This document shows positions 28,297 through 63,278 of a DNA stretch of 64,000 bases, piece by piece; position 1 is the first letter of the stretch; each line of letters starts with the position of its first letter. The notes under the pieces are model-generated. The model did no database searches. It was not told the origin of the DNA and was given only the letters and a program-made list of their open reading frames with translations. The stretch comes from Treponemataceae bacterium. GTDB taxonomy: Bacteria; Spirochaetota; Spirochaetia; Treponematales; Rectinemataceae. The DNA lies in contig CAXXVZ010000005.1 of NCBI GenBank assembly GCA_963678065.2, positions 736,001-800,000 on the forward strand, written 5' to 3'. A program made the translations under genes and the position numbers.

Positions 28297-28363
28297 CAAA
28301 GCGAGTGTAGCGATGGCCGAAGAGGGAGCTTGCGACCGATGAGCGTGAACAGCGCTGTTAGTT
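28297..28363 (-). repeat. attC subtype C, partial (right of IS21)
   Basis: gaagagggagcttgcgaccgatgagcgtgaacagcgctgttagtt. Confidence 0.8.
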
Positions 28364-28488
28364 GCAGTCGTGACCTTCGAGCGCGCTTGGATGGGGAGAC
28401 TTGTCTCCTCATCCAATACTCTATCTTGCGCGCGTTCTTCTCTTCCTCTTCTCTTACCCTTATTTTTTCTTTCACGATTGCAACTAAC
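28357..28488. repeat. ORF-less structured cassette, copy 1
   Basis: 132 bp, near-identical to four other copies. Confidence 0.9.
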
Positions 28489-28621
28489 GTTTCCGGCCTG
28501 CGACGTTTTGGCCCGCATCGGCGGGACAAAATGTGCCTGAATGGAACGAGCGTATGCGAGTGGAATGAAGGCCGAAGAAGGAGCCGAAGGCGACTGATGA
28601 GTGTGGGCCGCGGTGTTATCT
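28482..28621 (-). repeat. attC site, subtype D
   Basis: aactaac gtttccggcc...gttatct. Confidence 0.85.
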
Positions 28622-28774
28622 GCTTTTCGCCCCCTCTTCAAACCTTTTTACCTTCTCTTCATCTTCCTCTTTTCTTCACCCTTTTACGTTTGTTTTTATC
28701 GTTATTCCCTATATGATTTTAGAGCCATTCCATAGTTTTCAAAATTCTATTCACACTATTTTTGTTATACTCTA

Positions 28775-30169
28775 GAGGCTTTTTCAAAACTTCGTAATCC
28801 GCTTTGTAAAAAAGCGAGTTATTGTAACTGAAGCTTCGTTTTTGCACAGTAAAAATTACATGTGCAGTAAAAAGGGCTCTCTTTTCAGTGCAAAAGATGG
28901 ACTACCCCTACAAAATCCGGTTCTGCCGGATTGCCCGGTTACGATTTCTGCAGTTCGGGAAGGATGAAGTACTGCAAAGCCTTGACGGCCGCCAGAACCA
29001 CTACCCCGCACATGAGCAGGAATGATACTTTCTCAAATCCCCGTACAAATATCTGACCCGGTATGAGCCAATCCTTCAAATGCGAGTTTGCACGTTCAAC
29101 CGTTGTCCTGATTGTGTACCGCTCCTTCTGTGACGGCGAAAATGGTTCCCGTTCCGTCCCACGACGCGTATTCCGATCAATCAGCGGAACACGCCCACGT
29201 CCCTGGATATAGGTCGCGATGGGATCCGCATCGTATGCAGCGTCCATGACTGAATACAGATGTCGGACCTTTTTCTCTGTTATCTTTTCCAGAGGAATCG
29301 CTACTTGCGAATCATGAACATTGGCGCCGGTTACGACTGCTGAAATAGGGAATCCTGTGTCGCTGACATCAAGGTGCAACTTGTATCCTTTCCATGTTTC
29401 CCTATTCCCCTGGCTGTTCTTCTTGCATCCCCATGCACAGTCTTTGGATAGTTCTGACAAGGATTTCCTGACGCTTTGGCCGACTTGCTTTTCTATCTGT
29501 GTCGGCTCCTTCACAGGCCGAACTTCTCCTTTTCGGGGACGACCTCGTTTCCGTTGCGGTGTCACGGAAGAAACAGCTTCACGTTTGGCAGGTACAGGTT
29601 TTTCTCGTGCTCGTATCTCCGTCGCATCCCGATTTATGTGTCCGACGATATGGCCGTCATGACAATCCTTCACCATGGTATTCAAAGTCTGAATCAGCGG
29701 AGTCTTTTTTGAAAACTCCGCGTAGCGACGCGAAAAGGTCGCAGAGCTTGGAACGGAGGTGAAGCCGCATATCCTCCGCAGATTCGGATCGTTGATCAGC
29801 CTGTTCCTAAGGTCCGTGACTGTCGCTATGTGGAATACCGTTCGGGCGAAAAACGCCCGCATGATCGGTTCGTTCCGATGTGGAGGACGGCCAGTCCGTG
29901 CACATGGTGATGTAATCCGTGGCTGAGCATCTTCAATGACTCTGAGCAGGGCGATAAAAAAGCGATGCTCGTCGGTGAGATATTCTTCGAAACATCGCTG
30001 GATATCGTAGGAAATCGGCAAAAGTATTTGCGCTCCGCCCAGTATTTCTGGTATGGTTTTCATCAGCGGGGGCTCCTCCTGGTGACGTTTGTGTTGCAAC
30101 ATCATCATACAGGTTCTGTCCCCGCTTTTCATTAAAATTCGTTCATCTCATGACTTTTGAAAGAGCCTC
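28775..30169 (-). mobile_element. 1395-bp DDE IS (IS5/IS1182-like or ISNCY), copy 1; transposase 28939-30132
   Basis: IRs GAGGCTTTTTCAAAA/TTTTGAAAGAGCCTC; TCTA duplication; DAT, GYKLH, MDAAYD, VERANS motifs. Confidence 0.88.
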
Positions 30170-30288
30170 TCTATACTTTTCTTATTCCATTTTTAACAAC
30201 TCTTTTCACGTTTTCTTACTTTTATAAATTTCGTATCATTATACTTTATCTCTTTTTAATATCAATAATTATTATCTATAATACCTAT

Positions 30289-30317
30289 TTGACAAACATG
30301 CCCATTATATTTATAAT
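30289..30317 (+). promoter_or_regulatory. Consensus sigma70 promoter, probably leaderless
   Basis: TTGACA-17-TATAAT-6 nt-ATG(30324). Confidence 0.85.
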
Positions 30318-30323
30318 ATAATT

Positions 30324-30614
30324 ATGATACCAATACGGTTTTCATGGGATGAAGCTAAAAATACGATCAACATCGCAAAACACAACATTTCATTTGATGA
30401 AGCTCAAACCGTATTCCATGATCCGTATGCCAGAATCATCTCTGATCCAGAACATTCAGATCAAGAAGATCGTTTCATACTGTTAGGTTTGAGTCAGAAG
30501 CTCAGACTTTTGATTGTCTGCCATTGTTATCGTTCCGATGACGACATCATCAGGATCATTTCTGCCAGAAAAGCATCAAAAACTGAATCAGTATATTATG
30601 GAGGACCGCTATGA
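30324..30614 (+). CDS. BrnT family toxin
   Basis: FSWDEAKN..KH.ISF..IRIISARKA. Confidence 0.9.
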   Translation: MIPIRFSWDEAKNTINIAKHNISFDEAQTVFHDPYARIISDPEHSDQEDRFILLGLSQKLRLLIVCHCYRSDDDIIRIISARKASKTESVYYGGPL

Positions 30615-30820
30615 AAACTGAATACGATTTTTCCCAATCAAAATCCAATCCCTATATAAAGAAACTCAGAAAACAGATCACCATCAGAATTGATATAGAG
30701 ACGATTGAGTATTTCAAGAAGCAGGCTGAAACCACAGGGATTCCCTATCAAAACCTGATAAATCTCTATCTGTATGATTGTGCTTCGAAATCTAAAAAAC
30801 TTGATCTTGCCTGGAAGTGA
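30611..30820 (+). CDS. BrnA-like antitoxin
   Basis: EYDFS..ITIRID..YFK..GIPYQNLIN. Confidence 0.88.
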   Translation: MKTEYDFSQSKSNPYIKKLRKQITIRIDIETIEYFKKQAETTGIPYQNLINLYLYDCASKSKKLDLAWK

Positions 30821-30846
30821 TTTTCTTCCTCTCGGGGGCGAATTGC

Positions 30847-30987
30847 AGATAACGTTCGCCTGCCTACGACGTTGTGGCGAGCATCGGCGAGCCACAATGT
30901 GCCTGAGCGGAATGAGCGACAGCGAGTGTAGCGATGGCCGAAGAAGGAGCAGCAGGCGACTGATGAGCGTGGGCAGCGCTGTTATAC
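30847..30987 (-). repeat. attC site, subtype A
   Basis: Consensus repeat. Confidence 0.85.
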
Positions 30988-31833
30988 GCTTTTTGGCGCT
31001 GCTCTTTCTTCTATTCTCTTCAAGTATTCTAATACCTTTCTTCCATTCTCTTTTCTTTTCGTATATCCCAATTCTTTTGATACAACAGATTCAATTTCCA
31101 TAACTATTTGACCTGACACATATAATGATTCCCAAAACTTTTGATCTTCATAATCGTTATACGTTTTTTCTATCTTTTCCCATAATTCTTCTGATACATT
31201 TTTTTTGATAAATCTTCCATACTTCCCAACATTGATTTTCCAACTATGTTCGTGTCCAATATGCCAAGATACTATTTTCAGAAAACACTCTCTGACAATA
31301 CTCTCATACATATACTTTGCATAACATAATTCTTTTCGTGCTATTCCTTTTCCAACATTGATAATACACCACCAAAACTCATTTACCGTTTCATAATACT
31401 CATGTTCTGTTGGTTGTTTTGTAACATATGAAAAATCCGATGGTTCATCCAATTTTTTTATTCTATGATCCTTATCAAGTACTACTTTGGTTAGGCTATC
31501 ATGTAACTTATTTTGAATTGTAGCTACTGGATAGAATGAAGCATCTATCCGTAATCCATCACTAAATTGCATCAAGAATATTGGGAATTCTATAGAATCC
31601 TCAGTACAACAATTGTGCTGAAGAATAAGAAGATCTCCAAAGAAGGCCATCCAGGATTGATCATCAATGAACTGTTTATATGAATTGACACCAAAGATAA
31701 CGTCATAATCTGAATAGTCATCGGATTGAATACTCGGATTGACACGAGATCCATTCAGCAAAACAAGACGAATAGACTCATGTTGATCACCAAAGGAAAT
31801 AATCTGATTCAACACTTGTTCAGTAGTCTTCAT
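30982..31833 (-). CDS. Aminoglycoside 6-adenylyltransferase-like (AadK/ANT(6) family)
   Basis: LNGSRVNP..D.YSDYD, FLMQFSDGLRID, NEFWW, GKYG. Confidence 0.85.
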   Translation of the reverse strand: MKTTEQVLNQIISFGDQHESIRLVLLNGSRVNPSIQSDDYSDYDVIFGVNSYKQFIDDQSWMAFFGDLLILQHNCCTEDSIEFPIFLMQFSDGLRIDASFYPVATIQNKLHDSLTKVVLDKDHRIKKLDEPSDFSYVTKQPTEHEYYETVNEFWWCIINVGKGIARKELCYAKYMYESIVRECFLKIVSWHIGHEHSWKINVGKYGRFIKKNVSEELWEKIEKTYNDYEDQKFWESLYVSGQIVMEIESVVSKELGYTKRKENGRKVLEYLKRIEERAAPKSV

Positions 31834-31854
31834 TTTTCTCCAGCGCCAAATTGC

Positions 31855-31995
31855 GTATAACGTTTGCCTGCCTACGACGTTGTGGCGAGCATCGGCGAGC
31901 CACAACGTGCCTGAGCGGAATGAGCAAAGCGAGTGCAGCGATGGCCGAAGAAGGAGCCGATAGGCGACTGATGAGCGTGGGCAGTGCTGTTAGTC
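31855..31995 (-). repeat. attC site, subtype A
   Basis: Consensus repeat. Confidence 0.85.
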
Positions 31996-32008
31996 GCTGT
32001 CCCCAAAA

Positions 32009-32965
32009 TCATCTCTTTCTTTTCTTTACTTCCACCACATAATTTTCTACTGCTTCTCGCGTCGTCATCCAATTCCTTTCAAATTTCACCGCAGGCAATC
32101 GTCCCTTCCTCGCAAGTAGCGATAAATACTCAAGAGAATACTCACAATACTTTGTGGCTTCCTTGAGGCTTATATACCCTTGATGTTCTACATTATTGAT
32201 TGGTTTCAGACTGTTCAAATACACTATCAATGAACGTTCTATTGATTTCCCGATAAAATCTACAAACTCTTGAGGTTTATCAAGATCGGCTTGTCGTAAC
32301 ACTCTATAATATTTTTTCCTATCCAGATTCAAAATCACCGCAGGAGGATATCCATGCTGCATGAGTACCAAATTCATTAATAACCGAGCTGTTCTACCAT
32401 TCCCATCGATAAATGGATGAATACACACAAATTTATAATGAACATAGGCTGCCAATTCTGGAACAGGTATCGAATATTGATGTTCGTAATACCATGCCAG
32501 AAATTCCTGTATCAAAGCAGGTATTTTCAATGGATTCGGAGGAATGTGTACTGCTCCGAGTATCCTGACAGCGGTTGTTCGATATACTCCAGCTTGGAAA
32601 TCATCAATACTCTTTAATATAAAAGAGTGAAGCTTTTTTATGAACAACTCATCAAGATTTCGCTTTTTGTCAATAAACGTTTCAAGGTATTCGATTCCAG
32701 CCTTGTGGTTGATAGCTTCAAAATGCTCTTTAAGCGATTTATTCCCAATGGTCAAACCGCGGTTCAGAACAAGCTCAGTCTCCTGTAAGGATAAAGTGTT
32801 CCCCTCGAGTGCATTCGAGTTATATGTCCATTCTACAATGAATTGCTCTTTCAATCGCTGGATAATGGCAGGAGGAAGTGGACGAAGGTGATCCAACTCG
32901 CGCTTTTTGCCCTCGATACTGGCTTCGAGAGTCGGATTCATTGACACAATCATATCGGATTCCAT
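32009..32965 (-). CDS. Fic family protein with C-terminal HTH-like tail
   Basis: SNALEGN inhibitory motif, HPFIDGNGRTAR; start uncertain. Confidence 0.9.
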   Translation of the reverse strand: MESDMIVSMNPTLEASIEGKKRELDHLRPLPPAIIQRLKEQFIVEWTYNSNALEGNTLSLQETELVLNRGLTIGNKSLKEHFEAINHKAGIEYLETFIDKKRNLDELFIKKLHSFILKSIDDFQAGVYRTTAVRILGAVHIPPNPLKIPALIQEFLAWYYEHQYSIPVPELAAYVHYKFVCIHPFIDGNGRTARLLMNLVLMQHGYPPAVILNLDRKKYYRVLRQADLDKPQEFVDFIGKSIERSLIVYLNSLKPINNVEHQGYISLKEATKYCEYSLEYLSLLARKGRLPAVKFERNWMTTREAVENYVVEVKKRKR

Positions 32966-33020
32966 ACATTCGAGTATAACCGATACAATGCCATCATGCA
33001 ATCTTGATTTTGGGGATTGC

Positions 33021-33158
33021 GACTAACGTTCTGCCTGTTTGCGACGATGGCGTGAGCATCGGCGAACGCCATTGTGCCTGAGCGGAATGAGCAAAGCGAG
33101 TGCAGCGATGGCCGAAGAGGGAGCTTGCGACCGATGAGCGTGAACAGCGCTGTTAGTT
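33021..33158 (-). repeat. attC site, subtype C
   Basis: gttctgcctgtttgcgacgatggcgtgagc...gtgaacagcgctgttagtt. Confidence 0.85.
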
Positions 33159-33285
33159 GCAGTCGTGACCTTCGAGCGCGCTTGGATGGGGAGACTTGTC
33201 TCTCCATCCAATACTCTATCTTGCGCGCGTTCTTCTCTTCTTCTTCTCTTACCCTTATTTTTTTTCTTTCACGATTGCAACTAAC
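33152..33285. repeat. ORF-less structured cassette, copy 2
   Basis: 134 bp (T-run 2 nt longer). Confidence 0.9.
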
Positions 33286-33417
33286 GTTCGCCTGCCTACG
33301 ACGTTGGCGAGCATCGGCGAGCCACAATGTGCCTGAGCGGAACGAGCGCATGCGAGTGCAGCGATGGCCGAAGAAGGAGCCGCAGGCGACTGATGAGCGT
33401 GGGCAGTGCTGTTAGTT
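33279..33417 (-). repeat. attC site, subtype A
   Basis: Consensus repeat. Confidence 0.85.
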
Positions 33418-33503
33418 GCTTTTATGACACGTCTTCATCTTCCCATTTTTACCATTTTCTCTTTCTTCATGTTCTATTACCAAATTCTTATCTTCACTAC
33501 CTT

Positions 33504-33546
33504 TTGACTTTTTCTTCATTATAGTATATACTATTATATATACTAT
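33504..33546 (+). promoter_or_regulatory. vapBC promoter with palindromic operator
   Basis: TTGACT-17-TATACT overlapped by ATAGTATATA..TATATACTAT. Confidence 0.7.
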
Positions 33547-33557
33547 TGGAGGATGCC

Positions 33558-33788
33558 ATGAATACTGCCAAAATATTTATTAATGGAAGCAGCCAAGCTG
33601 TGCGATTACCAAAAGAATGCAGATTTGATACTGATGATGTCTATGTCAGAAAATTGGATGATATCGTCATTCTTTTGCCAAAAAAGAATCCCTGGGCCTC
33701 TCTTATCAAAAGTCTTGATCATTTTTCTCCCGATTTCTTGAATACTCGTGATCAACCTTCATCTACTCAAGAAAGGGAGATATTCTGA
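33558..33788 (+). CDS. vapB: VapB antitoxin (AbrB/MazE fold)
   Basis: TAKIFINGSSQAVRLPKECRF. Confidence 0.9.
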   Translation: MNTAKIFINGSSQAVRLPKECRFDTDDVYVRKLDDIVILLPKKNPWASLIKSLDHFSPDFLNTRDQPSSTQEREIF

Positions 33789-34207
33789 TGCTCTATATGC
33801 TGGATACAAATATCTGCATCTATATCATCAAACGAAAGCCTCAGTCAGTTATTGATACGTTTCTAAAACTCACCATTGAAGATGTGTGTATTTCATCAAT
33901 CACCTATGCAGAATTGGAGCATGGAGTATCAAAAAGCGATTTCCCAAAACAGAACAAAATTGCATTGATACAGTTTCTTTCTCCCATTACAATTTTGCCA
34001 TTTGCTGACAGAGCAGCATCAGTATATGGAGATGTACGTTCAAAACTAGAAAAAGCAGGAACACCCATTGGCCCTTTGGATACATTGATTGCGGCACATG
34101 CAGTATCAGAAAACCTGATCCTGGTAACAAACAATACGAAGGAATTTGAACGAGTAGACTATCTGCAGCTTGAGAATTGGGTTTCTTCTCCTCTCTCCGC
34201 GTCATAA
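33788..34207 (+). CDS. vapC: VapC toxin
   Basis: YMLDTNICIYII, IGPLDTLIAAHA, LVTNNTKEF. Confidence 0.92.
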   Translation: MLYMLDTNICIYIIKRKPQSVIDTFLKLTIEDVCISSITYAELEHGVSKSDFPKQNKIALIQFLSPITILPFADRAASVYGDVRSKLEKAGTPIGPLDTLIAAHAVSENLILVTNNTKEFERVDYLQLENWVSSPLSAS

Positions 34208-34211
34208 TTGC

Positions 34212-34352
34212 AACTAACGTTCGCCTGCCTACGACGTTGTGGCGAGCATCGGCGAGCCACAATGTGCCTGAATGGAACGAGCGCAAGCGAGTGGAATGAA
34301 GGCCGAAGAAGGAGCCGAAGGCGACTGATGAGCGTGGGCAGTGCTGTTAGCC
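34212..34352 (-). repeat. attC site, subtype A
   Basis: Consensus repeat. Confidence 0.85.
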
Positions 34353-34384
34353 GCTGGGCGGATTTTTTCTCCCTACCCCTTCCC

Positions 34385-35020: not shown

Positions 35021-35056
35021 CTCCTGATACTTTTTTTCTCAAAAAATCCGACTTGC

Positions 35057-35198
35057 GGCTAACGTTCGCCTGCCTACGACGTTGTGGCGAGCATCGGCGA
35101 GCCACAATGTGCCTGAGCGGAACGAGCGCATGCGAGTGCAGCGATGGCCGAAGAAGGAGCCGAAAGGCGACTGATGAGCGTGGGCAGTGCTGTTAGGC
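35057..35198 (-). repeat. attC site, subtype A
   Basis: Consensus repeat. Confidence 0.85.
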
Positions 35199-35215
35199 GC
35201 TGGGCAACAACATAA

Positions 35216-35800: not shown

Positions 35801-35801
35801 T

Positions 35802-37493: not shown

Positions 37494-39412
37494 GTCGAGT
37501 AGGCCGGGGGATTTTCACCCCCAGCCTCTCACGGAACCGTACGTGATAGTCTCCCATCATACGGCTCTTCACACTTTACCATTGGCATACCATCCGTGCT
37601 CCCAGTGAATGAACAAGTGCTTTTTGCTGTCAGCCGCATTCTTCATGAGTTCGGCGGCCTTCATCCAACTCCTCTTCAGGCGCTTGTATGTGCACTTTGC
37701 CCATTTTACGAGGATTTTCTGGAACATGCAAAAGATACCGTACAATGCCGATGGCCGAAATCTGCCATAATAGGCAAACCATCCTGCAAGCTTCGAGTTG
37801 TATAGCTTCGACAAACTTTCGAGGGTCGCTGTCGCCGCCCTCTGGATTCGCCACGTCCGAATAGTGTCCTTGATCGCCTGCTCGGATGTTTTGCTGATCG
37901 CCGGGGTGAAAGCCACAAAGAGCTTCCCATTCTTCCCCCTCGCCGTGCGCGGCCTGAAGGTGAAGCCGAGAAAGTCAAACGTGGTCCTTTCATATACTCC
38001 CCTGCGGTTCCTATCCTGGCAATACACGATTTTCGTCTTCTCCGGATGTACTGTCAGCTTGCACTCGGCCAAACGCAGTTTGATCTCTTCCAGGAGATTT
38101 TCAGCCTCCGCCTGTGTCCGGCAGTGGATGACGATGTCGTCAGCATAGCGCTCGAAGGGGTTCCCCCCGTGTCTCCGTTCCATCCACGTGTCAAAGGCGT
38201 ACTGCAGAAACAGGTTTGCCAGGAGCGGGCTTATCACCCCGCCCTGTGGCGTTCCCGTATCCCTCTCAAAGATCATTCCCTTGTCGTCTTCTGCCGGGGC
38301 TTTGAGCCATCGCTCGATGTATAACTGAACCCACTCAGGCGGCTTGTGAAACTCCACCGCCTTCATCATGAGTTCCCAATCGATGGCGTCAAAGAACCCC
38401 TTGATGTCCAGATCGATCACCCAGTCATATTTCCAGCACCGTTCCCGTGCTTTCGCCACGGCGTGATGGGCCGATTTCCCAGGACGATACCCAAAGGAAT
38501 CATCATGAAACATCGGCTCCACCATGGGCTCAAAACACAACCGCACGGTCATCTGCGCGATTCGATCCGCAACAGTCGGTATTCCCAACGGTCGCGTTCC
38601 TCCGCTCTTCTTCGGAATCTCCACCCTCCGCACCGACTGTGGATGGTAGCTGCCAGAGGACATCCGATTCCAGAGCTTGTAGAGATTCTTCGAGAGATTC
38701 CCGTCAAACTTCTCAAGCGTCTGTCCATCGATCCCCGCCGCCCCATCGTTCGCCCGTACACGCTGGTATGCCTTCCATACGAGTCGCTTCGGTATGTCAA
38801 ACGGTTTTGCCTTTCCCATCCGTTCATCCTGTCGCCAGTTGGCGTTCAGAAAAGACACGAGTATGTCGGCCCCTTCGCTCCATTCCCGTTACAGGAACTT
38901 CATCACTACTACGAGCCGGCGCCATCCTGGCGACGTCCCTGTGCTCCGCATCGGTACTCTCCCTCTCGTCGGGTTCGCCGCTTGAGGTTCTCCCTTCACA
39001 TCGGAACGACAGGTTCCCACGTTCCATACAACAGCCCAGTATCAATTCACGCCGCCTTAATGCCGGAGGCCGTCCACCCAGTACACAGGTTTCCCGATGG
39101 ACTCTTTTCACAGCGCACTAGCTAATCACTGCTTTTGACCTCATCAAACTCACTTTCGACACCTCATCGGTCGGTTCACTTTCGTTCGCCTCCTGATACC
39201 ACACCTGACCCCGTCATGCGGGGGCCTTTTAACCAGATACGTTCACCACCGGGACTCTTTATCCAAGCAGCTTCTGGCGGTTTGAGACCGGCTCCTGCAA
39301 GCAGATCCCGAGGCTCACACCAGCTACCCCGGTGTTTCCTCATCTGTCGTACAGCTCTTATGACACCTCCTGAATCACTATTCAAAAGTGCCCATCAGAT
39401 TTCGTGGCACAC
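37494..39412 (-). mobile_element. Group II intron (RmInt1-like)
   Basis: 5' GTGTG; domain V GAGCCGTATGATGGGAGACTATCACGTACGGTTC; domain VI ending CTACTCGAC. Confidence 0.92.
37569..38819 (-). CDS. ltrA: Group II intron reverse transcriptase/maturase, no endonuclease domain
   Basis: LWNRMSSGSY, RPLGIPTVADR, GTPQGGVISPLLAN, RYADD. Confidence 0.93.
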   Translation of the reverse strand: MGKAKPFDIPKRLVWKAYQRVRANDGAAGIDGQTLEKFDGNLSKNLYKLWNRMSSGSYHPQSVRRVEIPKKSGGTRPLGIPTVADRIAQMTVRLCFEPMVEPMFHDDSFGYRPGKSAHHAVAKARERCWKYDWVIDLDIKGFFDAIDWELMMKAVEFHKPPEWVQLYIERWLKAPAEDDKGMIFERDTGTPQGGVISPLLANLFLQYAFDTWMERRHGGNPFERYADDIVIHCRTQAEAENLLEEIKLRLAECKLTVHPEKTKIVYCQDRNRRGVYERTTFDFLGFTFRPRTARGKNGKLFVAFTPAISKTSEQAIKDTIRTWRIQRAATATLESLSKLYNSKLAGWFAYYGRFRPSALYGIFCMFQKILVKWAKCTYKRLKRSWMKAAELMKNAADSKKHLFIHWEHGWYANGKV

Positions 39413-52041: not shown

Positions 52042-52102
52042 TGGAAATGGCAAGTAGTTTTCCCCACCATATGGCAACTAGGAATCCCCACCCGGTAGAG
52101 GG

Positions 52103-52843
52103 TTATTCCTCCTTCTTTGCAGAGATGCGATATGACTCCCCTGACAGGGAGAAAATCTTTGCGTGATGCATGAGACGATCCAACAGGGCTGCGGTCATAA
52201 CCTCGTCGCCCATGAGTTCTGACCAAGAGTTCAGGTCCTTGTTGCTCGTCACGACGATAGAGGCACGTTCATAGAGATCCGAGACGAAGGTGAAAAAGAG
52301 ATTGGCTTCCTTGCGCTCGATAGGAGTGTAGCCAATCTCATCAATGATCATGAGGTTGGCCTTCGCGAGCCGGCTTAGCCTGAACTGAGCGCTGCGTGCG
52401 GCGTCAGAGCGCACGAGGAGCTTCACCAGTGAGGTCATGCGCTCGTAACAAACCGAATAGCCTTTGCGTACGGCCACATGGCCAAGAGCGATTGCGAGAT
52501 GGGTCTTTCCGAGTCCAGGAGGCCCGAAGAGCAGAAGGTTCTCGTGACGGTCTATCCAAGAGCACTCGGTGAGCTCAGAGAGGTCTCGTTTTCCAATTCC
52601 TGCTACTCGGCCGAGTTTGAAATCCTCGAGGCGCTTTACGACGGGAAAATGGGCCATGGCGAGGCCTCGTTTGAGGCGCCTGTCGCCGCGATCCTGTAGT
52701 TCGACGTCCACGAGGGTCTCGAGGAAGGCAAGGCATGTCAGTCCCCCGCTTTCAGCTTGTTTAAGAAGCTCAGGAAGCCGTGACGACGCGCCACGAAGCC
52801 GCAGGGACTCCAGTTTACGAGCGGATTCTGCGAGGGCGCTCAT
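52103..52843 (-). CDS. istB: IstB ATPase
   Basis: Identical to the 27495-28235 product. Confidence 0.93.
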   Translation of the reverse strand: MSALAESARKLESLRLRGASSRLPELLKQAESGGLTCLAFLETLVDVELQDRGDRRLKRGLAMAHFPVVKRLEDFKLGRVAGIGKRDLSELTECSWIDRHENLLLFGPPGLGKTHLAIALGHVAVRKGYSVCYERMTSLVKLLVRSDAARSAQFRLSRLAKANLMIIDEIGYTPIERKEANLFFTFVSDLYERASIVVTSNKDLNSWSELMGDEVMTAALLDRLMHHAKIFSLSGESYRISAKKEE

Positions 52844-54387
52844 TCTTCGTGCCTCTGCGTATCGACGAGCGCGTCGAGGAATCGCTGATACTCGCTGACC
52901 GAGCGTGTGGCAACTAGTGGAAGGTCTCTGGTTTGATGAAGGCCGCGGTACGGCGAAGGCGCCACTGCGGGCACTGGCGTCGTGCTGTTGACCGCGTCGA
53001 TGAGATCCTGGGCGCTTGCAAGTCCTCTATCCAGGCAGAACTTCAATGCAAGCACGAGTTTCTCTCTGTCGATGTTGCGCTTGAGAAGCTTCCGAAGTCG
53101 GCCAGCGTGCTCCCGGAAGTAGCGTCGATACTCGGTATAGATACCATCGACGAAGCTCCCCCACTCGGGAAGATCATCTACTGCGGCGACAAGATCCGCG
53201 CGGAGCGTTTCCTGGGATCCTTCGCGATCGCGATAGTGAGCCTTGTCCAGCACCGTTCCGCCGGGTGTTGCCGCTTCGCGATGCGCCGCGATCTGGATAC
53301 CCGTCTTCGTATCGAATACCAGGATGAGTCCGTCCTTGCGCTCGATAGTGACCTCGTTGAGCCGGTACGAGTTCGGCACCGAGTACCTGGTCGCGGCGAT
53401 CGATATAAGGCTTTTCTGATCCACGTTACGGCTCTCTCGGCAGCCCGATGCGGTGTCCGCGCGGAAAATAGACGCTCGGAGCGCCCGCAAGACGGGTTTC
53501 TCGTGCGCTTCGAAGTCCGCGAGCGGCATGAGACGCGTGGCTTGGCTCAGTTTTGCGTTCACTCGTAAGAGCCATTTGCGCATGCCTGCCTGGAGTTCGT
53601 CGAAGGTCGCGAAGCTGCGGCTCGAGAAATAGCTCGTTTTGACGTATTTGACCGCATTCTCGACCTTTCCTTTCGATTCCGGATCGGCCGCACGGCAGAC
53701 ACGGAGCCGCAGTCCCTGTTCTGCGACGAACTCAGCAAAGGCTTTTGTCGTCGTGAGGTCGCCAAGGTTTTCCGTCACAATCATTGTCCGGTCCTGATCC
53801 ATGACGAGTTCTTCGGTGATACCGCCAAAAAACTCGAAGGCGTCCAGGAGATGGCCGATCACATCCTCGCTGGTAAAGGGCCTGGATTGGGCCGCTACGT
53901 AGCGGTAACGGCTTCGTGAGAGTACTACGACAACAAACCAAGCCTTTCCGATGTTCGTCGTCTCTACGCCGAAATCAATCTGAGCCTGCTTGCCGTAGGC
54001 CAGAGGCTCCACAGGACGATATTCCCGACACAGGCCCACCTTAATCGCACCGGATGCCTTGAGATACGTCAGGTAGTTCCGCAACGTACGGTCCGAGCCT
54101 GGAAGCTCTCCGTATTTCTCGCTTAAGTAGTCGTGGACGGACGATGAGTAGACCATTCTGCCTTCGTGGTTCTTTTTAAAAATCTCGAGGATTTCGTCCT
54201 TGTAGACCGAAAAAGCCTTACCGCGTTCTGCCATTCGCTCGAGATACCGTAAGAATTGGTCATTGTCCATGCGCAGGTACTTTCTCACGGTCTTGCGGTC
54301 CTTGCCAAGTTTTACCGCTAGTGCGCTGACTGTGAGTCCTTGCCTGTGCCCTGTTCGTACGATGTTGTAGTCCTTCATGGTAATCAT
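52840..54387 (-). CDS. istA: IstA transposase
   Basis: Near-identical to the 25951-27498 product. Confidence 0.92.
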   Translation of the reverse strand: MITMKDYNIVRTGHRQGLTVSALAVKLGKDRKTVRKYLRMDNDQFLRYLERMAERGKAFSVYKDEILEIFKKNHEGRMVYSSSVHDYLSEKYGELPGSDRTLRNYLTYLKASGAIKVGLCREYRPVEPLAYGKQAQIDFGVETTNIGKAWFVVVVLSRSRYRYVAAQSRPFTSEDVIGHLLDAFEFFGGITEELVMDQDRTMIVTENLGDLTTTKAFAEFVAEQGLRLRVCRAADPESKGKVENAVKYVKTSYFSSRSFATFDELQAGMRKWLLRVNAKLSQATRLMPLADFEAHEKPVLRALRASIFRADTASGCRESRNVDQKSLISIAATRYSVPNSYRLNEVTIERKDGLILVFDTKTGIQIAAHREAATPGGTVLDKAHYRDREGSQETLRADLVAAVDDLPEWGSFVDGIYTEYRRYFREHAGRLRKLLKRNIDREKLVLALKFCLDRGLASAQDLIDAVNSTTPVPAVAPSPYRGLHQTRDLPLVATRSVSEYQRFLDALVDTQRHEE

Positions 54388-54485
54388 TTCTTGTGCCGCA
54401 TGCTCGCAAGCATAGCGGCCAAGGCCCCTGTGGGTGGGGAATCCTATTTGCCAACTGCTGGGGAATTCAGTTTACCATTTCCAGC

Positions 54486-54626
54486 ACCTAACGTTTGCCT
54501 GCCTACGACGTTGTGGCGAGCATCGGCGAGCCACAATGTGCCTGAGCGGAATGAGCGCATGCGAGTGCAGCGATGGCCGAAGAAGGAGCCGCAGGCGACT
54601 GATGAGCGTGGGCAGTGCTGTTAGCG
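54486..54626 (-). repeat. attC site, subtype A
   Basis: Consensus repeat. Confidence 0.85.
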
Positions 54627-55250: not shown

Positions 55251-55366
55251 ATTAATCCTCCATACACATTCCATATATAATACATACACATACATCAGTC
55301 AAGGCATTAGTAAATACATTTACGGCATAACGTTATATGCTATCTGATCTCGCGCAGCAATATTGC

Positions 55367-55507: not shown

Positions 55508-55511
55508 GACG

Positions 55512-56306: not shown

Positions 56307-56329
56307 TATCTTCTCTTCAAAAAAATAAT

Positions 56330-57603
56330 GGCTCTTCGCTGTTTCATGTGGGTAACTGCCCCAGTTTACCGGCGACAATGTAGGTCATGATCTTGAGATT
56401 TTTGATAGTTCGGAATCCTCTGGCTCTGGTCTTTGCTGACTGAATCAGACTATTCAACGATTCAAGAAGCCCATTTGTCACTCCGGATGTAAGCCACCGA
56501 ACGACTCCATTCCAGTGTCGTTTGAGCATCGCAGCAAAATTGATGATTGGGGTAAGCTGTGATCGTGTTGCCCATACTCTCCATTTTTTAAGTTCTTCTA
56601 TGGCTCGAGAAGCCGAGAATTCGAAAAGTCCCTTGAAAATGTTCATCATTCGCCATGCTCGCCCTGTTTTTAACTGTAATCCTGACAAGGTGTTGAGACG
56701 GGCCAAATTCTTAACCGACAGATTGTAGGGGTTGCTCAACCAGACATATTTCGAACCTCTGAGTACCGTTTCCATCGTTGATTCTTCTTTCCGCACGTCG
56801 TTGACTGCTTCACCCAGAAGCTTCATGACATGAAACCGATCAAACGTGAGAGCAGCCTGGGGAAGATGCTCTTCGATCCCGGACATGAACGCCGGCGACA
56901 TATCGGTACAGACCGTCCGTGATAGCAGTTTTCGAGCCTCCATGGGCTTCCAGATGCTCTGTAAAGGCTTTTATAGTGGATGCATCCTTGCCTTCGGTCA
57001 CATATATGGCTTTCCCTGTATCGAGATCGGCCACAACGGTGATGTATGAGTGTCCGCGTTTGGCTGCTGTTTCGTCGATTCCGATTCGTGTGGTTTTCGA
57101 TAAATCTTGTGTAGCCACGTCTTCGGAAACATAATGGTCCATAATTCGCCACACTCGCGTATCGGTGGTAGCTGTCAGTCTGGAAACTGCCTTGACGCTC
57201 ATTTCCTTGACCATGATCATCATGAGGGCTTCGTACAGCAGGGTAAATCCCGATCCTTTACGCGCCCACGGGATATCAATCAGATGAACGCCATGCTCAG
57301 GACAGTCTATCCGCGGAACTCGTGCATGCAGATAGGCTTCATGCTGGAAAAAATTGAGGTGACGCCATGTTTTGGGCATCGTATCGTAGGCTGTACCCTT
57401 GTAATCGCAGGAAAAACACGGAAAACGACTCCCGGGCTTGAACCCAAGCTGTATATCAAGCCGATGTTCTGTTGGTTTGAACTCTATGTTCTCAACAATC
57501 CAGGGTTCAGATAATCCAAGCGCAAGGGCGAATAGTTCTACGTCTTTCATGCTGCTCATCCTACCATGCTTCCTTGGTTACCCACACGATTCGTTGAAGA
57601 GCC
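56330..57603 (-). mobile_element. ISL3-family element with frameshifted transposase (56840-57559 and 56344-56943)
   Basis: GGCTCTTC..GAAGAGCC ends; IGIDE, DMSPAF, FDRFHV, ARGFR; no target duplication. Confidence 0.88.
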
Positions 57604-58010
57604 ATAATTTCTAAATACTCTTCTGCATTTACAATACTCATCTCGTTCTCAACATAATCATCACTATTTCTTGTTATTAATACTTTGATCCCATTTTCCA
57701 ATGCTGCATAATATTGTATTGCATCCTCAAGATCTTTGAACTTTGATGCTAATACCAGATCTATGATCTTTTCATTAACAGTCAATATTTTGGTCAATAA
57801 TCTCAATTTCCGAAGATGAATCAATGCTTCATTCTGAGATGATGCTTTTCTCAATATATAAAAAAGATTTGAGAATATTACTGGACTAATATATACTTCG
57901 ATTTTCCCTTTTTCTGCCATCGAGAATACTTTTGCTGCTGCTGGATAGAATGGCTGCCGCTTCAGAAACATATCCAGGATTATATCTGTATCGATAAATA
58001 CTTTGTTCAT
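57604..58010 (-). CDS. PIN toxin, paralog of 19684-20136, C-terminus cut by ISL3
   Basis: Closely similar protein; last residues read from the IS. Confidence 0.82.
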
Positions 58011-58252
58011 TTGCATTTATCCATAAGATAATTTACATATTCATCATCCATGGATGCGACATCCACATCGTTCAGGATGCCAGATAATTCCATAACAATA
58101 GGCGAATAGTGTGGTTCACCTTTTTCCTCAAGAGAAAGAATCCTAAAATAGTCCTCAACCAATCGGGAAAGACTTCGTTTCCGTTTTTGAGCATATACTT
58201 TGGCGGTTTCTATAACCGATTGATCCAACTTGAGAGTCAGCTTTGTTTCCAT
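58007..58252 (-). CDS. DUF6364-like antitoxin, paralog of 20133-20378
   Basis: METKLTLKLDQ. Confidence 0.82.
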   Translation of the reverse strand: METKLTLKLDQSVIETAKVYAQKRKRSLSRLVEDYFRILSLEEKGEPHYSPIVMELSGILNDVDVASMDDEYVNYLMDKCK

Positions 58253-58331
58253 ACAACACCTCTATACGTATTATACTAATCAATACACTACGTATAGTCA
58301 ACATCTTCTCCTGCTCTCTCGGGGGAATTTC

Positions 58332-58471
58332 ACATAACGTTCTGCCTGTTTGCGACGATGGCGTGAGCATCGGCGAGCGCCATTGTGCCTGAGCGGAATG
58401 AGCGCATGCGAGTGCAGCGAATGGCCGAAGAGGGAGCCTGCGACCGATGAGCGTGAACAGCGCTGTTAGTT
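58332..58471 (-). repeat. attC site, subtype C
   Basis: Subtype C. Confidence 0.85.
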
Positions 58472-58596
58472 GCAGTCGTGACCTTCGAGCGCGCTTGGAT
58501 GGGGAGACTTGTCTCCTCATCCAATGCTATATCTTGCGCGCGTTCTTCTCTTCCTCTTCTCTTACCCTTATTTTTTCTTTCACGATTGCAACTAAC
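58465..58596. repeat. ORF-less structured cassette, copy 3
   Basis: 132 bp. Confidence 0.9.
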
Positions 58597-58730
58597 GTTC
58601 GCCTGCCTACGACGTTGTGGCGAGCATCGGCGAGCCACAATGTGCCTGAGCGAAACGAGCGCAAGCGAGTGCAGCGATGGCCGAAGAAGGAGCCGTAGGC
58701 GACTGATGAGCGTGGGCAGTGCTGTTATGT
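58590..58730 (-). repeat. attC site, subtype A
   Basis: Consensus repeat. Confidence 0.85.
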
Positions 58731-58749
58731 GCTGTTCCCGCGCCATCTT

Positions 58750-59022
58750 CTATTTATATGCGTCTTTCCTATTCTCGATATCCAGAATAAATATTATTAC
58801 TTTATCTTCAACTATTTTGTAGAATACTCTATAATCCCCTATCCTAAATCGATATACCTCTTTCAATTCACCTTTCAATTTCTTGATGTTATTCCCAAAA
58901 TATGGATTCTCTCGCAATACTGGATACACAAAATCATGTATTTTTGCGTAGAGCTGACGATACTTTGGTGACTTGATTTTTTTCTGAAACGTTTCAGTTT
59001 CAGCTATTTTAAAATCAGCCAA
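58750..59022 (-). CDS. RelE/ParE toxin
   Basis: IKKLKG..YRFRIGDYRVFY..R.DAY. Confidence 0.9.
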   Translation of the reverse strand: MADFKIAETETFQKKIKSPKYRQLYAKIHDFVYPVLRENPYFGNNIKKLKGELKEVYRFRIGDYRVFYKIVEDKVIIFILDIENRKDAYK

Positions 59023-59248
59023 TTATGTGATACCGCCCTGCTTCAATATCAGAAAGACCCTTTCTAATATCAGTTTCAAATTTCAATATCTCATTCATCT
59101 CAAACTCATCAACAGAGGAATCATTGACTATATAATTGAGCGTTGCATATTCAATGAAGTTAGAGATTGTCCGTTTTTGACCATCGGCAGCTTTTTTGAA
59201 GAGATCATACACTTTTTCATCCATTCGCACGGTTATCGTTTTTGCCAT
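59015..59248 (-). CDS. RHH antitoxin
   Basis: MAKTITVRMD..RTISNFIE. Confidence 0.8.
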   Translation of the reverse strand: MAKTITVRMDEKVYDLFKKAADGQKRTISNFIEYATLNYIVNDSSVDEFEMNEILKFETDIRKGLSDIEAGRYHIIG

Positions 59249-59430
59249 ATTCACCTCATGCTTCAAATATATTCTATTTCATTCAATATAGCAATATATG
59301 AACCATAAAAATGAATCTATTCACGACGATCAAAACAATGAAACAGAATCATTTATAATTTGGATATAGAATTGACTACACAAAAATGTATCACGATTAC
59401 GTAGTTTCACACAAACCATGCGGGAATTGC

Positions 59431-59570
59431 ACATAACGTTCTGCCTGTTTGCGACGATGGCGTGAGCATCGGCGAGCGCCATTGTGCCTGAGCGGAATGA
59501 GCGCATGCGAGTGCAGCGAATGGCCGAAGAGGGAGCCTGCGACCGATGAGCGTGAACAGCGCTGTTAGTT
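59431..59570 (-). repeat. attC site, subtype C
   Basis: Subtype C. Confidence 0.85.
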
Positions 59571-59695
59571 GCAGTCGTGACCTTCGAGCGCGCTTGGATG
59601 GGGAGACTTGTCTCCTCATCCAATGCTATATCTTGCGCGCGTTCTTCTCTTCCTCTTCTCTTACCCTTATTTTTTCTTTCACGATTGCAACTAAC
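59564..59695. repeat. ORF-less structured cassette, copy 4
   Basis: 132 bp. Confidence 0.9.
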
Positions 59696-59829
59696 GTTCG
59701 CCTGCCTACGACGTTGTGGCGAGCATCGGCGAGCCACAATGTGCCTGAGCGGAACGAGCGCAAGCGAGTGCAATGAAGGCCGAAGAAGGAGCCGCAGGCG
59801 ACTGATGAGCGTGGGCAGTGCTGTTAGCC
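59689..59829 (-). repeat. attC site, subtype A
   Basis: Consensus repeat. Confidence 0.85.
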
Positions 59830-59846
59830 GCTGTGATCCATTTTTC

Positions 59847-60176
59847 TTACTTTTTCAATAATTTCTTTATCAATATATCCTGTACATTTCTTCTACCATC
59901 TATTACTTCATATACATAGACCGTATCAGCACTTATTGTATAAATAATTCTCCACGGTGTTTCAATCAATTCTCTATACTCAGTAATATTTTGATCCATT
60001 AATTCAGGAACAATTCTTCCCTGCTCAGGAAACTGTCCCAACCTCATTATTTTCTCATACAATCTATCAAATATCTTGAATGCTATTTCCTTATTATCCA
60101 ATGCGATATACATAACAATATCATTGAGATCTTCTTCCGCTGAGTTCAGAATCTTGACTTCAAATTTCTGACTCAT
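59847..60176 (-). CDS. ParE/RelE toxin
   Basis: AEEDL..I..YIA.D, FPEQGRIVPE, DGRR. Confidence 0.88.
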   Translation of the reverse strand: MSQKFEVKILNSAEEDLNDIVMYIALDNKEIAFKIFDRLYEKIMRLGQFPEQGRIVPELMDQNITEYRELIETPWRIIYTISADTVYVYEVIDGRRNVQDILIKKLLKK

Positions 60177-60457
60177 TTTATAGTCTCAAGCTTTTTCTTC
60201 AAATCCTTAAACACATCTTGTGCATCTCTGAATTTTCCCTCAACCTTATCCTTTTCTGCCAATTGGAGAATATTCATCAATGCAAATGCAGTTTGCATGT
60301 TCTGGAATGATTCAATATCCAATAGGACAGCTCGGGCTTCACCATTTTGAGTGATAATGACTGGATTCCGACATTCATTCACATATTTCATCATATCAGC
60401 AGCATTTGTCTTAATATATGAAATAGGTTTTATATCAGCCTTCAGATTGATTGCCAT
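60173..60457 (-). CDS. Phd/YefM antitoxin
   Basis: IKPISYIK..PVIITQNGEARAV. Confidence 0.88.
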   Translation of the reverse strand: MAINLKADIKPISYIKTNAADMMKYVNECRNPVIITQNGEARAVLLDIESFQNMQTAFALMNILQLAEKDKVEGKFRDAQDVFKDLKKKLETIK

Positions 60458-60732
60458 ACATATCTCCTGTGTATCAGTACTTATATAATACAATATATGC
60501 ACTGAATACGCAAGGTACACAATCCACTAGAAATCATAAAGCCCACTATCTTCTCTCAAAATGGATCATTGCGGCTAACGTTCTGCCTGTTTGCGACGAT
60601 GGCGTGAGCATCGGCGAACGCCATTGTGCCTGAGCGGAATGAGCGCATGCGAGTGGAGCGAATGGCCGAAGAGGGAGCCTGCATGTGTTTCGTCAAGGCG
60701 AAATACCCGAAAAAATCGTACAAAAACACCCA

Positions 60733-61512
60733 TCAGCCGGTGGGTAATTGTGCCTGGCCTTTCTGCCGCATGAGTGCGTGTTTCATCCGGTAGCTTTCAC
60801 CTTCGAAGAGAATAATGTGACCATGGTGGGCAAGCCTGTCGATCATGGCGGCAGCCATCTGATCGTCCGTGAAGATTGTCCCCCATTTGGAGAATTCAAG
60901 ATTGGTCGTGAGAATAACGCTTCGGCGCTCATAGGAATCGGAAATTATCCTGAACAGGAGCTGGGCTCCTTGCCGGTCGACGGGGACATAGCCCCATTCG
61001 TCTATGATCAAGAGATCAGCCCGAGCGATGGACATAACAAGCCGCTCAAGCGAGCCTTCCTTAAGGGCTTCGGAAAGCCTTACCACCAGCTCTGCAGCGG
61101 TAAAGAACCTGGTACGGAAGGTGCGAGAGCACGCGGTGACGCCAAGGGCTGTGGCAAGATGTGTCTTTCCAGTTCCAACGGGGCCGTAAAGCACCAAGTT
61201 TTTCTTCTCGGCGACGAACTGGGTGGTCATCATTTCCTGTTTCGAAAGCGCCGGCGGCAGCTTCACGCAGGAGAAATCAAAGCCCTCGAAGGTTTTGTAG
61301 ACGGGGAAGGCCGCTTCATGAAGGAATCGTGCCCTGCGGACATCGTCGCGGTTAGCCATCTCTCGCTTCAGGATCTTCAGGAGAAACTCTTCCTGGGGTG
61401 CCTTGGCCTCTTCCTCGCAGATCTTTACCGCGGTCTGGCTGAAGGCCATCTTGCGCAGCAGTACGGAGATTTCGCTGCGCAGTTCGGCACGATTGACACG
61501 CGCTTTTCTCAT
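60733..61512 (-). CDS. istB: IstB ATPase
   Basis: GPVGTGKTHLA, IIDEWGY, IDRLAHH. Confidence 0.92.
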   Translation of the reverse strand: MRKARVNRAELRSEISVLLRKMAFSQTAVKICEEEAKAPQEEFLLKILKREMANRDDVRRARFLHEAAFPVYKTFEGFDFSCVKLPPALSKQEMMTTQFVAEKKNLVLYGPVGTGKTHLATALGVTACSRTFRTRFFTAAELVVRLSEALKEGSLERLVMSIARADLLIIDEWGYVPVDRQGAQLLFRIISDSYERRSVILTTNLEFSKWGTIFTDDQMAAAMIDRLAHHGHIILFEGESYRMKHALMRQKGQAQLPTG

Positions 61513-62981
61513 GACACGGTCTCCGAGTTGCTCATGAGGGCGCGATCGTAGGCTCCGAGGTCGGGTCCCTCGGAGGGAATGCCGTGAAGCCCATCAAAGG
61601 CGACCCTGGAAGCAACCGCGCTAAGGCTGAAACTGTCCAGCCGGCCTCGGGCAATCGCTTCCTCAAGCGAGGTCATGGCGACGTCGAACCCAAAGGTCGT
61701 ACTGCTTTTCACCAGGACTTTCAGCACATTGCGCAGATCAGGCTTTGAGAGTTCGTCCATCGCGACTCGTATGGTATCGTCAACGCCTGCCCTAAAGGCG
61801 CTATTGATCCATGCGCCAGGCTTCTTCATGAGGGTTTCAAGGCTTGTTCGGTAATCGCAGCTGTCGCTCCGCTCGTCGCCATAGACTCTTCGGTGGACAC
61901 ACAACGGGGTTCCTTCGCTGCGGTACACGACGAGTTCATGCGCCTTGAGCCCTACGGTCACTTCGCTGTTCCCGCATTCGGGAGCGCTTGAATACCAATG
62001 CTTTCCGTCAATGCAGAACTTTCCGTAGCCATCCGTGGATACTCGCTCGAAACGCTCGACGATGAAGCTTCGCACCGGCAAAAGCCCTAAAGACTGCCGC
62101 TCCTCTTCGAACAACTCGGCAATATTCTGATTTTTCTTGTAATGCGATCGGTCATGATCTTTCGCCGCTTTTTCGAGCAATTCCTTGTTCCAAGACTCGA
62201 GGCTGTCCACAACCGGCAGAGGAACGAAGAAGTTCCTTCTCGCATAGCCGATCTTGTTTTCGACATTCCCTTTCTCATGGCCTGAAGCAGGGTTGCAGAA
62301 GCTGACCGCAAAGCCATAGTGGCATTTGAACCGAAGGAAAAGCTGGCTCAAGGTGACACGGTCGCGGACCCGTCTGCCTACGCCCGTTGCGTTGTCGAAC
62401 ACGATCCTGGCGGGAACGCCACCTATGTGGCTGAATATATCTTTGAGCCCCTGGGAAACACATTCGGCCGTCTCGCCGCTGAAACACTGCGTAAAGCCCG
62501 CATTGCTGAAGGGAAAGGTCAAGGTCAGGTATTTGACGGTCCTTCGAACGCCGGCCTCGATCAGTTCTGCCTCTCCGAAATCGGCCTGCGCCTCGCCTTT
62601 CGACCAGACGAGCTCAAGAAACCCCTCCGCTTCTTTCCTGGCCGCTTTCCGCCGTTTGACATAGCGCTGGACCAAAGGATATGAGCAGTCGTAGTCGTCG
62701 GGGTGTTCTTCCAGAAGCCTTGTATGGATCCTCATGGCCCTATGGCGCTGCTTGAAACGCATCTTCAGGTCTTCGGCAAGCCATTGATCGATGGTTGGCT
62801 TCCATCGATCAAGTTTCGAGGGAAGCTCGCGGGGCACTTCGGTAGAGGCGTTGAAGTCCTCCTGCTTCATATACTTCGCTGTTGTTTTTCGATCGATTCC
62901 CAGCCGTTCAGCGATCTCGCAGGGACCATAGCCCTGCCTTTGCAAATCTTTGACGTGATCAATCTGGTTCATGTGGAGCAT
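61509..62981 (-). CDS. istA: IstA transposase
   Basis: AQADFG, FDNAT, EKGNVE. Confidence 0.92.
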   Translation of the reverse strand: MLHMNQIDHVKDLQRQGYGPCEIAERLGIDRKTTAKYMKQEDFNASTEVPRELPSKLDRWKPTIDQWLAEDLKMRFKQRHRAMRIHTRLLEEHPDDYDCSYPLVQRYVKRRKAARKEAEGFLELVWSKGEAQADFGEAELIEAGVRRTVKYLTLTFPFSNAGFTQCFSGETAECVSQGLKDIFSHIGGVPARIVFDNATGVGRRVRDRVTLSQLFLRFKCHYGFAVSFCNPASGHEKGNVENKIGYARRNFFVPLPVVDSLESWNKELLEKAAKDHDRSHYKKNQNIAELFEEERQSLGLLPVRSFIVERFERVSTDGYGKFCIDGKHWYSSAPECGNSEVTVGLKAHELVVYRSEGTPLCVHRRVYGDERSDSCDYRTSLETLMKKPGAWINSAFRAGVDDTIRVAMDELSKPDLRNVLKVLVKSSTTFGFDVAMTSLEEAIARGRLDSFSLSAVASRVAFDGLHGIPSEGPDLGAYDRALMSNSETVS

Positions 62982-63146
62982 TCCCTCCTCCCTGCTGGAT
63001 AAATCCTACAGGGTTTTCATCGCCACTTCCTCCCCACGATTTTTATGGGGAATTCTGACGATTTTTCTGTCCATTCCAGTTTGATCTTTTCGGGTATTTC
63101 TAGATTACGCTACACAAGCCTGCGACCGATGAGCGTGAACAGCGCT

Positions 63147-63278
63147 GTTAGTTGCAGTCGTGACCTTCGAGCGCGCTTGGATGGGGAGACTTGTCTCCCC
63201 ATCCAATGCTATATCTTGCGCGCGTTCTTCTCTTCCTCTTCTCTTACCCTTATTTTTTTTTTCACGATTGCAACTAAC
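63147..63278. repeat. ORF-less structured cassette, copy 5
   Basis: 132 bp. Confidence 0.9.

Follow-up and report, generated by a model that had tools for sequence, protein, structure and literature searches.

The window analyzed here (64,000 nucleotides, C5:736001-800000, from the genome of a Treponemataceae bacterium, assembly GCA_963678065.2, whose contigs are called C5 and C3) holds the distal part (18680-64000) of a 177-kb array of cassettes (C5:754680-931571, about 178 attC-like sites), and scattered along that array is a mini-cassette, E1, that carries no gene. E1 has a body of 132 bp and its own attC. BLAST finds 52 full copies, 94-100% identical and all within this one array, where they make up 52 of the 174 cassettes (30%; the count drops five segments consisting only of insertion sequences inside split sites). 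No other family has more than six members. One of the copies is the first cassette after the recombinase gene and attI. E1 is amplified, it is placed at random, it holds the first position at attI, it shares a conserved fold with two diverged versions of itself, and it prefers the bottom strand for folding. On balance, it is probably a minimal non-autonomous passenger, excised and re-inserted by the recombinase of the array more readily than are gene cassettes.

Copies of the mini-cassette and their placement

Five copies lie in the window, the same five that a preliminary description, made from the letters alone, had reported. All have the minus orientation, which is the sense of the cassettes; the bottom strand, which folds, is plus.

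28357..28488, minus: E1 body, copy 1
28299..28360, minus: leftover half of the C-type attC of copy 1, adjoining an insertion sequence
33152..33285, minus: E1 body, copy 2 (134 bp)
33024..33155, minus: C-type attC of copy 2
58465..58596, minus: E1 body, copy 3
58335..58468, minus: C-type attC of copy 3
59564..59695, minus: E1 body, copy 4
59434..59567, minus: C-type attC of copy 4
63147..63278, minus: E1 body, copy 5
60576..63150, minus: C-type attC of copy 5, interrupted at about 60680-63118 by an insertion sequence that has a short direct repeat

Copy 2 is 2 nt longer than the others, the indel that had been noticed earlier. The attC of copy 1 has its other half, of A type, at 25757-25857, and is thus a rearranged hybrid of A and C types surrounding an insertion sequence. 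The insertion sequence in the attC of copy 5 we take, tentatively and by eye, to be IS21-like.

The right-arm motif of the C-type attC occurs exactly five times in the window, each time abutting an E1 copy, and the left-arm motif four times, one of these being the detached half of the site of copy 5. Over the whole array, the 52 attC sites of E1 comprise 48 intact C-type sites, two C-type sites split by insertion sequences, one hybrid, and one A-type site; among the gene cassettes, none has a complete C-type site and one has part of it. The element had been described as tied to a private attC. In the window the C type is indeed confined to E1 copies, but since a cassette carries its own attC, this is largely descent. 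The right arm of each C-type attC (window 58453-58468 in copy 3) includes a 12-bp perfect palindrome, with 6 bp as the spacer between AAC and GTT, and is nearer than the A-type arm to a plain tyrosine-recombinase core.

Body and attC form a unit of about 257 bp (253-265 bp across the three versions of the element; 53 units measured). Among the 48 E1 units with intact attC, 38 are distinct, and four gametes are found in 124 of 200 site pairs. Sequence distance is uncorrelated with array position (rho -0.03), and tandem neighbors differ as much as random pairs do (10.3 vs 10.3 of 278 columns). The distinct units, the four gametes, and the divergence of tandem copies are as expected if copies were inserted separately out of a pool that recombines, and not if slippage or mis-assembly had produced them.

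E1 has what defines a gene-less integron cassette: it lies between two attC sites, its R'/R'' ends are complementary, and it carries an attC of its own. That it moves as a unit is indicated indirectly, by the variety of its neighbors (30 classes downstream, 32 upstream) and by its first position at attI. No neighbor bias survives correction over nine tests; an excess in one of them, of longer cassettes without an open reading frame (ORF) upstream of E1 (8 vs 4.5, P=0.04 uncorrected), was not retained. E1 lies beside E1 15 times, against 15.25 expected by permutation. Two of the five attC sites split by insertion sequences are C-type, which is what a 30% share of the array predicts. GC skew was too weak to call the orientation of replication.

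Outside the array, a search with the core pattern gave 60 matches, 27 of them from genome contigs and 33 from metagenome contigs, and of these 59 were due to chance. The real one, the independent metagenome contig L079, carries two tandem E1 copies beside the same PIN cassette. Also, in two lake DNA runs representing a close strain, the E1 contig has depths of 23 and 33, compared with roughly 2-8 for single-copy pieces. A covariance model found the element in none of 64 other genomes and gave no real match in the loci of relatives; a pattern of the cassette ends matched once or twice in each of 16 genomes out of 400, close to the rate in controls, with the fold in none of the 17 places inspected; and the mini-cassette has no match in viral contigs or plasmids. 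Assemblies of the relatives are mostly fragmented (repeats break assemblies), so outside the lineage E1 is to be called "not found" rather than "absent".

The fold and its conservation

The preliminary description had drawn E1 as three nested stems, with ctc, tcc, and ccc variants and a pyrimidine tract, and had called it ORF-less. All of these stems, variants, and the tract are present, and no reading frame is conserved among 51 copies. In copy 3 the parts are as follows.

58465..58481, plus: left arm of outer stem P1 (9 bp, then 6 bp beyond a 2x2 loop), pairing with 58580-58596
58580..58596, plus: outer stem P1, right arm
58489..58494, plus: stem P2, left arm, pairing with 58536-58541; one pair double-changed in E3
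58495..58524, plus: inner hairpin P3, 14 bp, its spacer 2 nt long (5 nt in E2 and E3)
58542..58579, plus: unpaired pyrimidine tract of 38 nt (a purine tract on the sense strand), the site of indels

The plus strand of copy 3 folds with a z-score of -11.1 as RNA and -8.1 as DNA, none of 200 shuffles doing as well. The minus strand is weaker (-6.1 and -6.0), and attC alone folds no better than its shuffles. The same fold is found in two diverged versions of the element.

C5:804589: E2, one copy, with its own attC variant and the same fold
C5:816638, 841252, and 881425: E3, three copies, folding alike and having attC variants of their own
L001:5589-5726; L001:17638-17775; L003:5952-6089; L005:7325-7462: locus coordinates of the E2 and E3 copies

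When five E1, one E2, and three E3 copies are aligned on the fold, 99.7% of the cells are paired, and both sides have changed in 16 of the 35 pairs (10 of 14 in P3), a result matched by none of 500 shuffles. The covariation for which the preliminary description had proposed a check is therefore present. As read from the alignment it is a strong sign, not a probability, because it compares only three lineages. Among the 52 E1 copies, variation touches 4 of 70 stem columns and 17 of the 62 that are unpaired (P=7e-4). A change in P3 is kept paired as G·T on the plus strand in 36 of the 52 copies, and pairing on the minus strand only is seen in one. Excised circles of E1 and E2 are predicted to set the arms of attC and body back to back and to be more stable on the plus strand.

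Parts of this architecture are not peculiar to E1. P1, which in the mini-cassette includes the R boxes, is generic to the cassettes of the array. The G·T variants that keep pairing on the plus strand, as claimed earlier, are there, but both the outer stem and the preference for G·T are common to ordinary cassettes, and the plus-strand bias recurs in every ordinary family checked. The attC sites of integrons are recombined in the form of folded bottom strands, and these hold more G·T pairs (1.24 vs 0.39 per site), a mark of the recombined strand (PMC5027507). The motif that closes P2 also follows the outer stem of some ordinary cassettes (AGAT, 15 of 86; background 0.035). Richness in purines on the sense strand is general in cassette trailers (0.69; at least 0.8 in 19 of 86), the tract of E1 at 0.92 exceeding every ordinary trailer. 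The literature searched, most subscription papers being outside its scope, yielded no account of a gene-less cassette whose fold covaries.

What the mini-cassette may be

If E1 is a passenger of the recombinase, then the fold may speed the meeting of its ends. With the bottom strand in single-stranded form, zipping of P3 and P2 would unite the ends of the cassette (P1 and the R boxes) locally, whereas ordinary cassettes would have to join their ends across 600-1500 nt. The plus strand would be the one recombined. Replicative excision followed by re-insertion at attI would add copies, recombination between copies would shuffle variants, and the small size and lack of translation would make the cost too low for purging. 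Sites of the attC kind fold from single-stranded DNA or by cruciform extrusion, and resolution needs replication (PMC8946536). Predicted pairing of P1 is 0.86 in the native element and falls to 0.62 when P2-P3 are shuffled and to 0.39 when the entire interior is (12 of 21 contexts). The preliminary description was right to see a mobile, structured, gene-less cassette, and among the roles that it offered, that of a selfish minimal cassette fits best.

Several observations weigh against a passenger. Ordinary cassettes also pair their ends at equilibrium (P1 above 0.6 in 14 of 17 folded, from 19 selected), so any advantage of E1 must be kinetic. A body of 132 nt is already short, yet it keeps a 14-bp P3, the P2 motif, and a tract of 38-41 nt. 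On the bottom strand the tract is rich in pyrimidines, whereas the bottom strands of attC sites are skewed toward purines (PMC5027507). E2, with one copy, and E3, with three, share the fold without having been amplified. The fold is equally stable in RNA, and E1-like contigs occur in RNA libraries. Finally, three lineages are few on which to base covariation. A variant of the idea, in which E1 acts as a ratchet, easy to insert and hard to remove, was rejected: in local folds the R box of a site flanked by one mini-cassette hardly ever forms (0.000 and 0.003, against 0.31 for a control without far ends), but in whole ordinary cassettes the ends mostly pair and block R boxes too, and the effect is unspecific.

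MITEs, the miniature transposable elements with inverted repeats, and other non-autonomous elements are small and non-coding, have terminal inverted repeats, reach high copy numbers, and are moved in trans. Perhaps E1 is comparable, a parasite of an integron-like system whose recombinase is without the IntI insertion, a possibility that we regard as tentative. The excised single-stranded circle of 253-265 nt would then be a closed rod, with attC at one end and at the other a 14-bp hairpin free as to its sequence. E1 is like MITEs in its small size, its terminal inverted repeats, its high copy number, and its lack of coding, and it would likewise move in trans; unlike them, it is confined to a single cassette array, shows no target-site duplication, and is bounded by attC rather than by transposon ends.

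High-copy empty cassettes are already known from Vibrio. A family of non-coding cassettes in V. vulnificus accounts for 45 of 219 in strain CMCP6 and 34 of 187 in YJ016 (Boucher et al. 2006, PMC1382264). Like E1, these are ORF-less, have many paralogues per array, are narrowly distributed, and are suspected of gene conversion. E1 differs in its 132-bp body, its 30% share of the array, a nested fold kept across three sequences, and a recombinase without the IntI insertion; the Vibrio family is not known to have a conserved fold. Boucher et al. left undecided whether the non-coding cassettes are selfish or functional (PMC1382264), and that has been the question for high-copy non-coding cassettes since. 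E1, which is not tied to toxins and is more amplified than the window shows, lends itself to a direct test: it is small, nature has provided three sequence versions of one fold, and it sits beside the recombinase. If it is selfish, then integron arrays carry parasites able to fill a third of the slots and also the expressed first position. E1 would in that case be a natural minimal super-substrate, occupying a third of the array, and a tool for testing how the recombinase reads its sites, how the paired cassette ends come to be made, and whether high-copy empty cassettes are selfish.

Somewhat unlikely, though it has the most to draw on of what follows, is that E1 encodes a structured non-coding RNA, sense or antisense, with copies kept for dosage in the manner of sRNA-Xcc1. 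The predicted RNA fold is strong on both strands (z -6 to -11), the covariation comes with G·U-type variants, the stems are conserved over the 52 copies, E1-like contigs appear in three RNA libraries from two studies, and cassettes carrying small RNAs are a known kind (PMC6557892). Both sRNA-Xcc1 and a repeated "empty" cassette of Xanthomonas resemble E1 in being RNA-bearing or ORF-less (10.1101/2025.06.18.660453, PMC6557892). The empty one occurs several times in one array, E1 in far higher copy number. However, the strand bias equals the DNA-site features of all cassettes, and there is no promoter-like site on either strand. Rfam, unlike the case of sRNA-Xcc1, offers only three chance matches far below the gathering score (best E 1.1, in 3801 bases comprising five E1, one E3, and attC sites), and Hfq was not found in the genome. 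The contigs from RNA libraries cover E1 with attC as well as pieces of the recombinase and ferritin genes, the recombinase pieces being near-identical in an RNA library of a lake sample. These are contigs only, unstranded and from a multi-copy element, so that strand, level, and transcription are unreadable and DNA carry-over is possible. Nor did the element turn up in the 64 related genomes searched with the covariance model or the 400 searched with the end pattern, most of them fragmented.

More specific RNA candidates were rejected. A tract binding Hfq or CsrA fails in that no Hfq was found and E2 has not retained the GGA words. A match between the tract and the purine loop of the C-type attC, 10 bp by eye, is of low complexity and is retained in neither E2 nor E3. 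A hammerhead ribozyme was suggested by a CUGAUGA-like word in the A-type attC, but the word is missing from the B and C types, and Rfam is negative.

E1 is unlikely to be a cheap spacer or decoy useful to its host, one that absorbs recombinase activity or hits by insertion sequences, or that parks at attI and so lessens the shuffling or expression of gene cassettes. The first position and 30% of the slots are taken by E1, the close lake strain is apparently multi-copy as well (by the rough depths given above), and insertion sequences do split C-type sites. But the two splits in five match the 30% share, no placement bias remains after correction, and E1 is missing from the related arrays that were retrieved. 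Benefit to the host and selfish spread are, moreover, not mutually exclusive.

A slightly poorer prospect still is a mobile promoter, terminator, or insulator serving the next cassette, toxins in particular. The preliminary description had placed the four unrearranged copies upstream of Fic or toxin-antitoxin (TA) cassettes, and in the window this is true of copies 2-5:

32009..33001, minus: Fic gene, downstream neighbor of copy 2, outside the element
57561..58252, minus: DUF6364 and PIN pair, downstream neighbor of copy 3
58750..59266, minus: small ORF and ParE toxin, downstream neighbor of copy 4
59847..60520, minus: Phd and ParE pair, downstream neighbor of copy 5

The pattern fails outside the window. 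From Pfam matches, 25 cassettes were labeled TA or Fic, with paralogues labeled by family (de-duplicated ORFs scanned: 86 of 112 small and 52 of 57 large, the remainder mostly pieces of insertion sequences or duplicates). Such a cassette lies downstream of 10 of 52 E1 copies, against 7.46 expected (20,000 permutations, P=0.17), and upstream of 6 of 51, against 7.5 expected. Outside the window, E1 precedes 6 of the 15 TA cassettes and 24 of the 79 that are not TA (P=0.55). The window is the TA-rich distal end of the array (10 of its last 29 cassettes), and this produces the apparent link. With neighbors at chance over the whole array, the outcome that the preliminary description itself had named as telling against a tie to toxins, the tie is rejected.

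Promoter activity is common in gene-less cassettes (PMC11014356, PMC6557892), and the promoter-bearing examples in Vibrionaceae and oral Treponema are like E1 in having no ORF, their own attC, and a place in large chromosomal arrays. The plus strand of E1 has a G+C stem followed by a T-rich run, and untranslated stretches can reduce downstream expression (PMC11511950). On the other side, TA cassettes usually have their own promoters (PMC6557892), and in E1 G+C-rich stems dominate. A 1251-bp stretch with four tandem copies has no promoter-like and no terminator-like site on either strand, where shuffles average 0.6 and 1.8 (the promoter scan covering sigma-70), which leaves the proposed terminator or insulator without support in the sequence.

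That E1 encodes a small peptide, or that its copies are an artefact of assembly, is largely refuted and most improbable: a frame of 82-83 codons runs into attC in 27 of 51 copies, but the bodies differ in length such that every one of the three frames is represented (24, 20, and 7 of 51) and the frame is shut after 3-18 codons in 22 of 51, while the distinctness of 38 of 48 units and the presence of E1 in independent contig and read sets speak against artefact.

The array and its recombinase

The recombinase without the IntI insertion and the 22-bp paired ends are traits of the whole array, not of E1 alone, and they are more unusual than E1. At the head of the array lies a gene for a tyrosine recombinase of 393 residues (C5:931895-933076; L008:2898-4076, minus). 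The gene and the cassettes share one direction, an arrangement also found in the reverse integrons of T. denticola. The enzyme has about 110 extra N-terminal residues. It scores 197 against the integron-integrase model TIGR02249, whose cut-off is 265, and it is short of about 45 residues of the IntI insertion, having 7 residues where VchIntIA has 53 (VchIntIA 172-225 aligns to only 285-292 of the array enzyme). The insertion is described as essential for integron function but is not fully conserved in an integron-like subgroup (PMC8138268). Treponema integrons have been searched for starting from the IntI and attC of T. denticola (Wu et al. 2013). Homologous recombinases are present in 53 of 251 genomes of the order, this one included.

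In layout the array matches a canonical integron, with a recombinase, an attI-like junction, and oriented cassettes; the IntI insertion is what it does not have. With canonical integrons (VchIntIA, PDB 2A3V; TIGR02249) it shares a tyrosine recombinase, an attI-like junction, cassettes in the same direction that start GTT and end AAC, the G·T bias of the bottom strand, and cassettes of TA, GNAT, and restriction type. It differs from them in the recombinase, with its low score and missing residues, and in paired ends of about 22 bp with a fixed mismatch. In ordinary cassettes, the cassette's own ends pair over about 22 bp (20-23 bp; 86 of 89 families, three having been left out for mismatched ends), and position 11 is never a Watson-Crick pair (G·T in 75 of the 86 families, T·T in 11). 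Such ends are absent elsewhere in the genome outside the array, and they occur in several of the relatives' recombinase loci retrieved.

The genome also has a canonical integron integrase at C3:97196-98137. It scores above the TIGR02249 cut-off and is accompanied by repeats of its own at about 99-125 kb, but by neither long paired ends nor the mini-cassette. Three further recombinases of 329-331 residues (C3:853417-854241, 865962-866786, and 2359007-2359831) match the integron-integrase model in two pieces, and in this they resemble the array enzyme.

Five attC sites of the array are split by insertion sequences (window 25857-28299, 52050-54492, and 60680-63118; C5:822895-825338 and 835430-839155), and the mismatched halves of some of them suggest deletions linked to insertion sequences. 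Longer A+T-rich cassettes without a clear ORF, of about 500-840 bp, number 15, several in families of two to five copies (window 25038-25761 and 28615-30853; 13 more in L001-L007). These are better candidates than E1 for promoter cassettes. A group II intron reverse transcriptase/maturase lies in a cassette interval, in cassette sense, at window 37569-38858. Defence-like cassettes, including a BsuBI/PstI restriction-modification pair, a TIR domain, a Schlafen AlbA_2 domain, and a RelA/SpoT domain, are found at window 20647-23062, L005:3659-4717, L005:14654-15487, and L007:9192-10010. Finally, several gene cassettes have short palindromes, similar to repetitive extragenic palindromes (REP-like), just inside both ends (C5:799406, 845021, 861113, 895658, 900274, 926149, and 930247).

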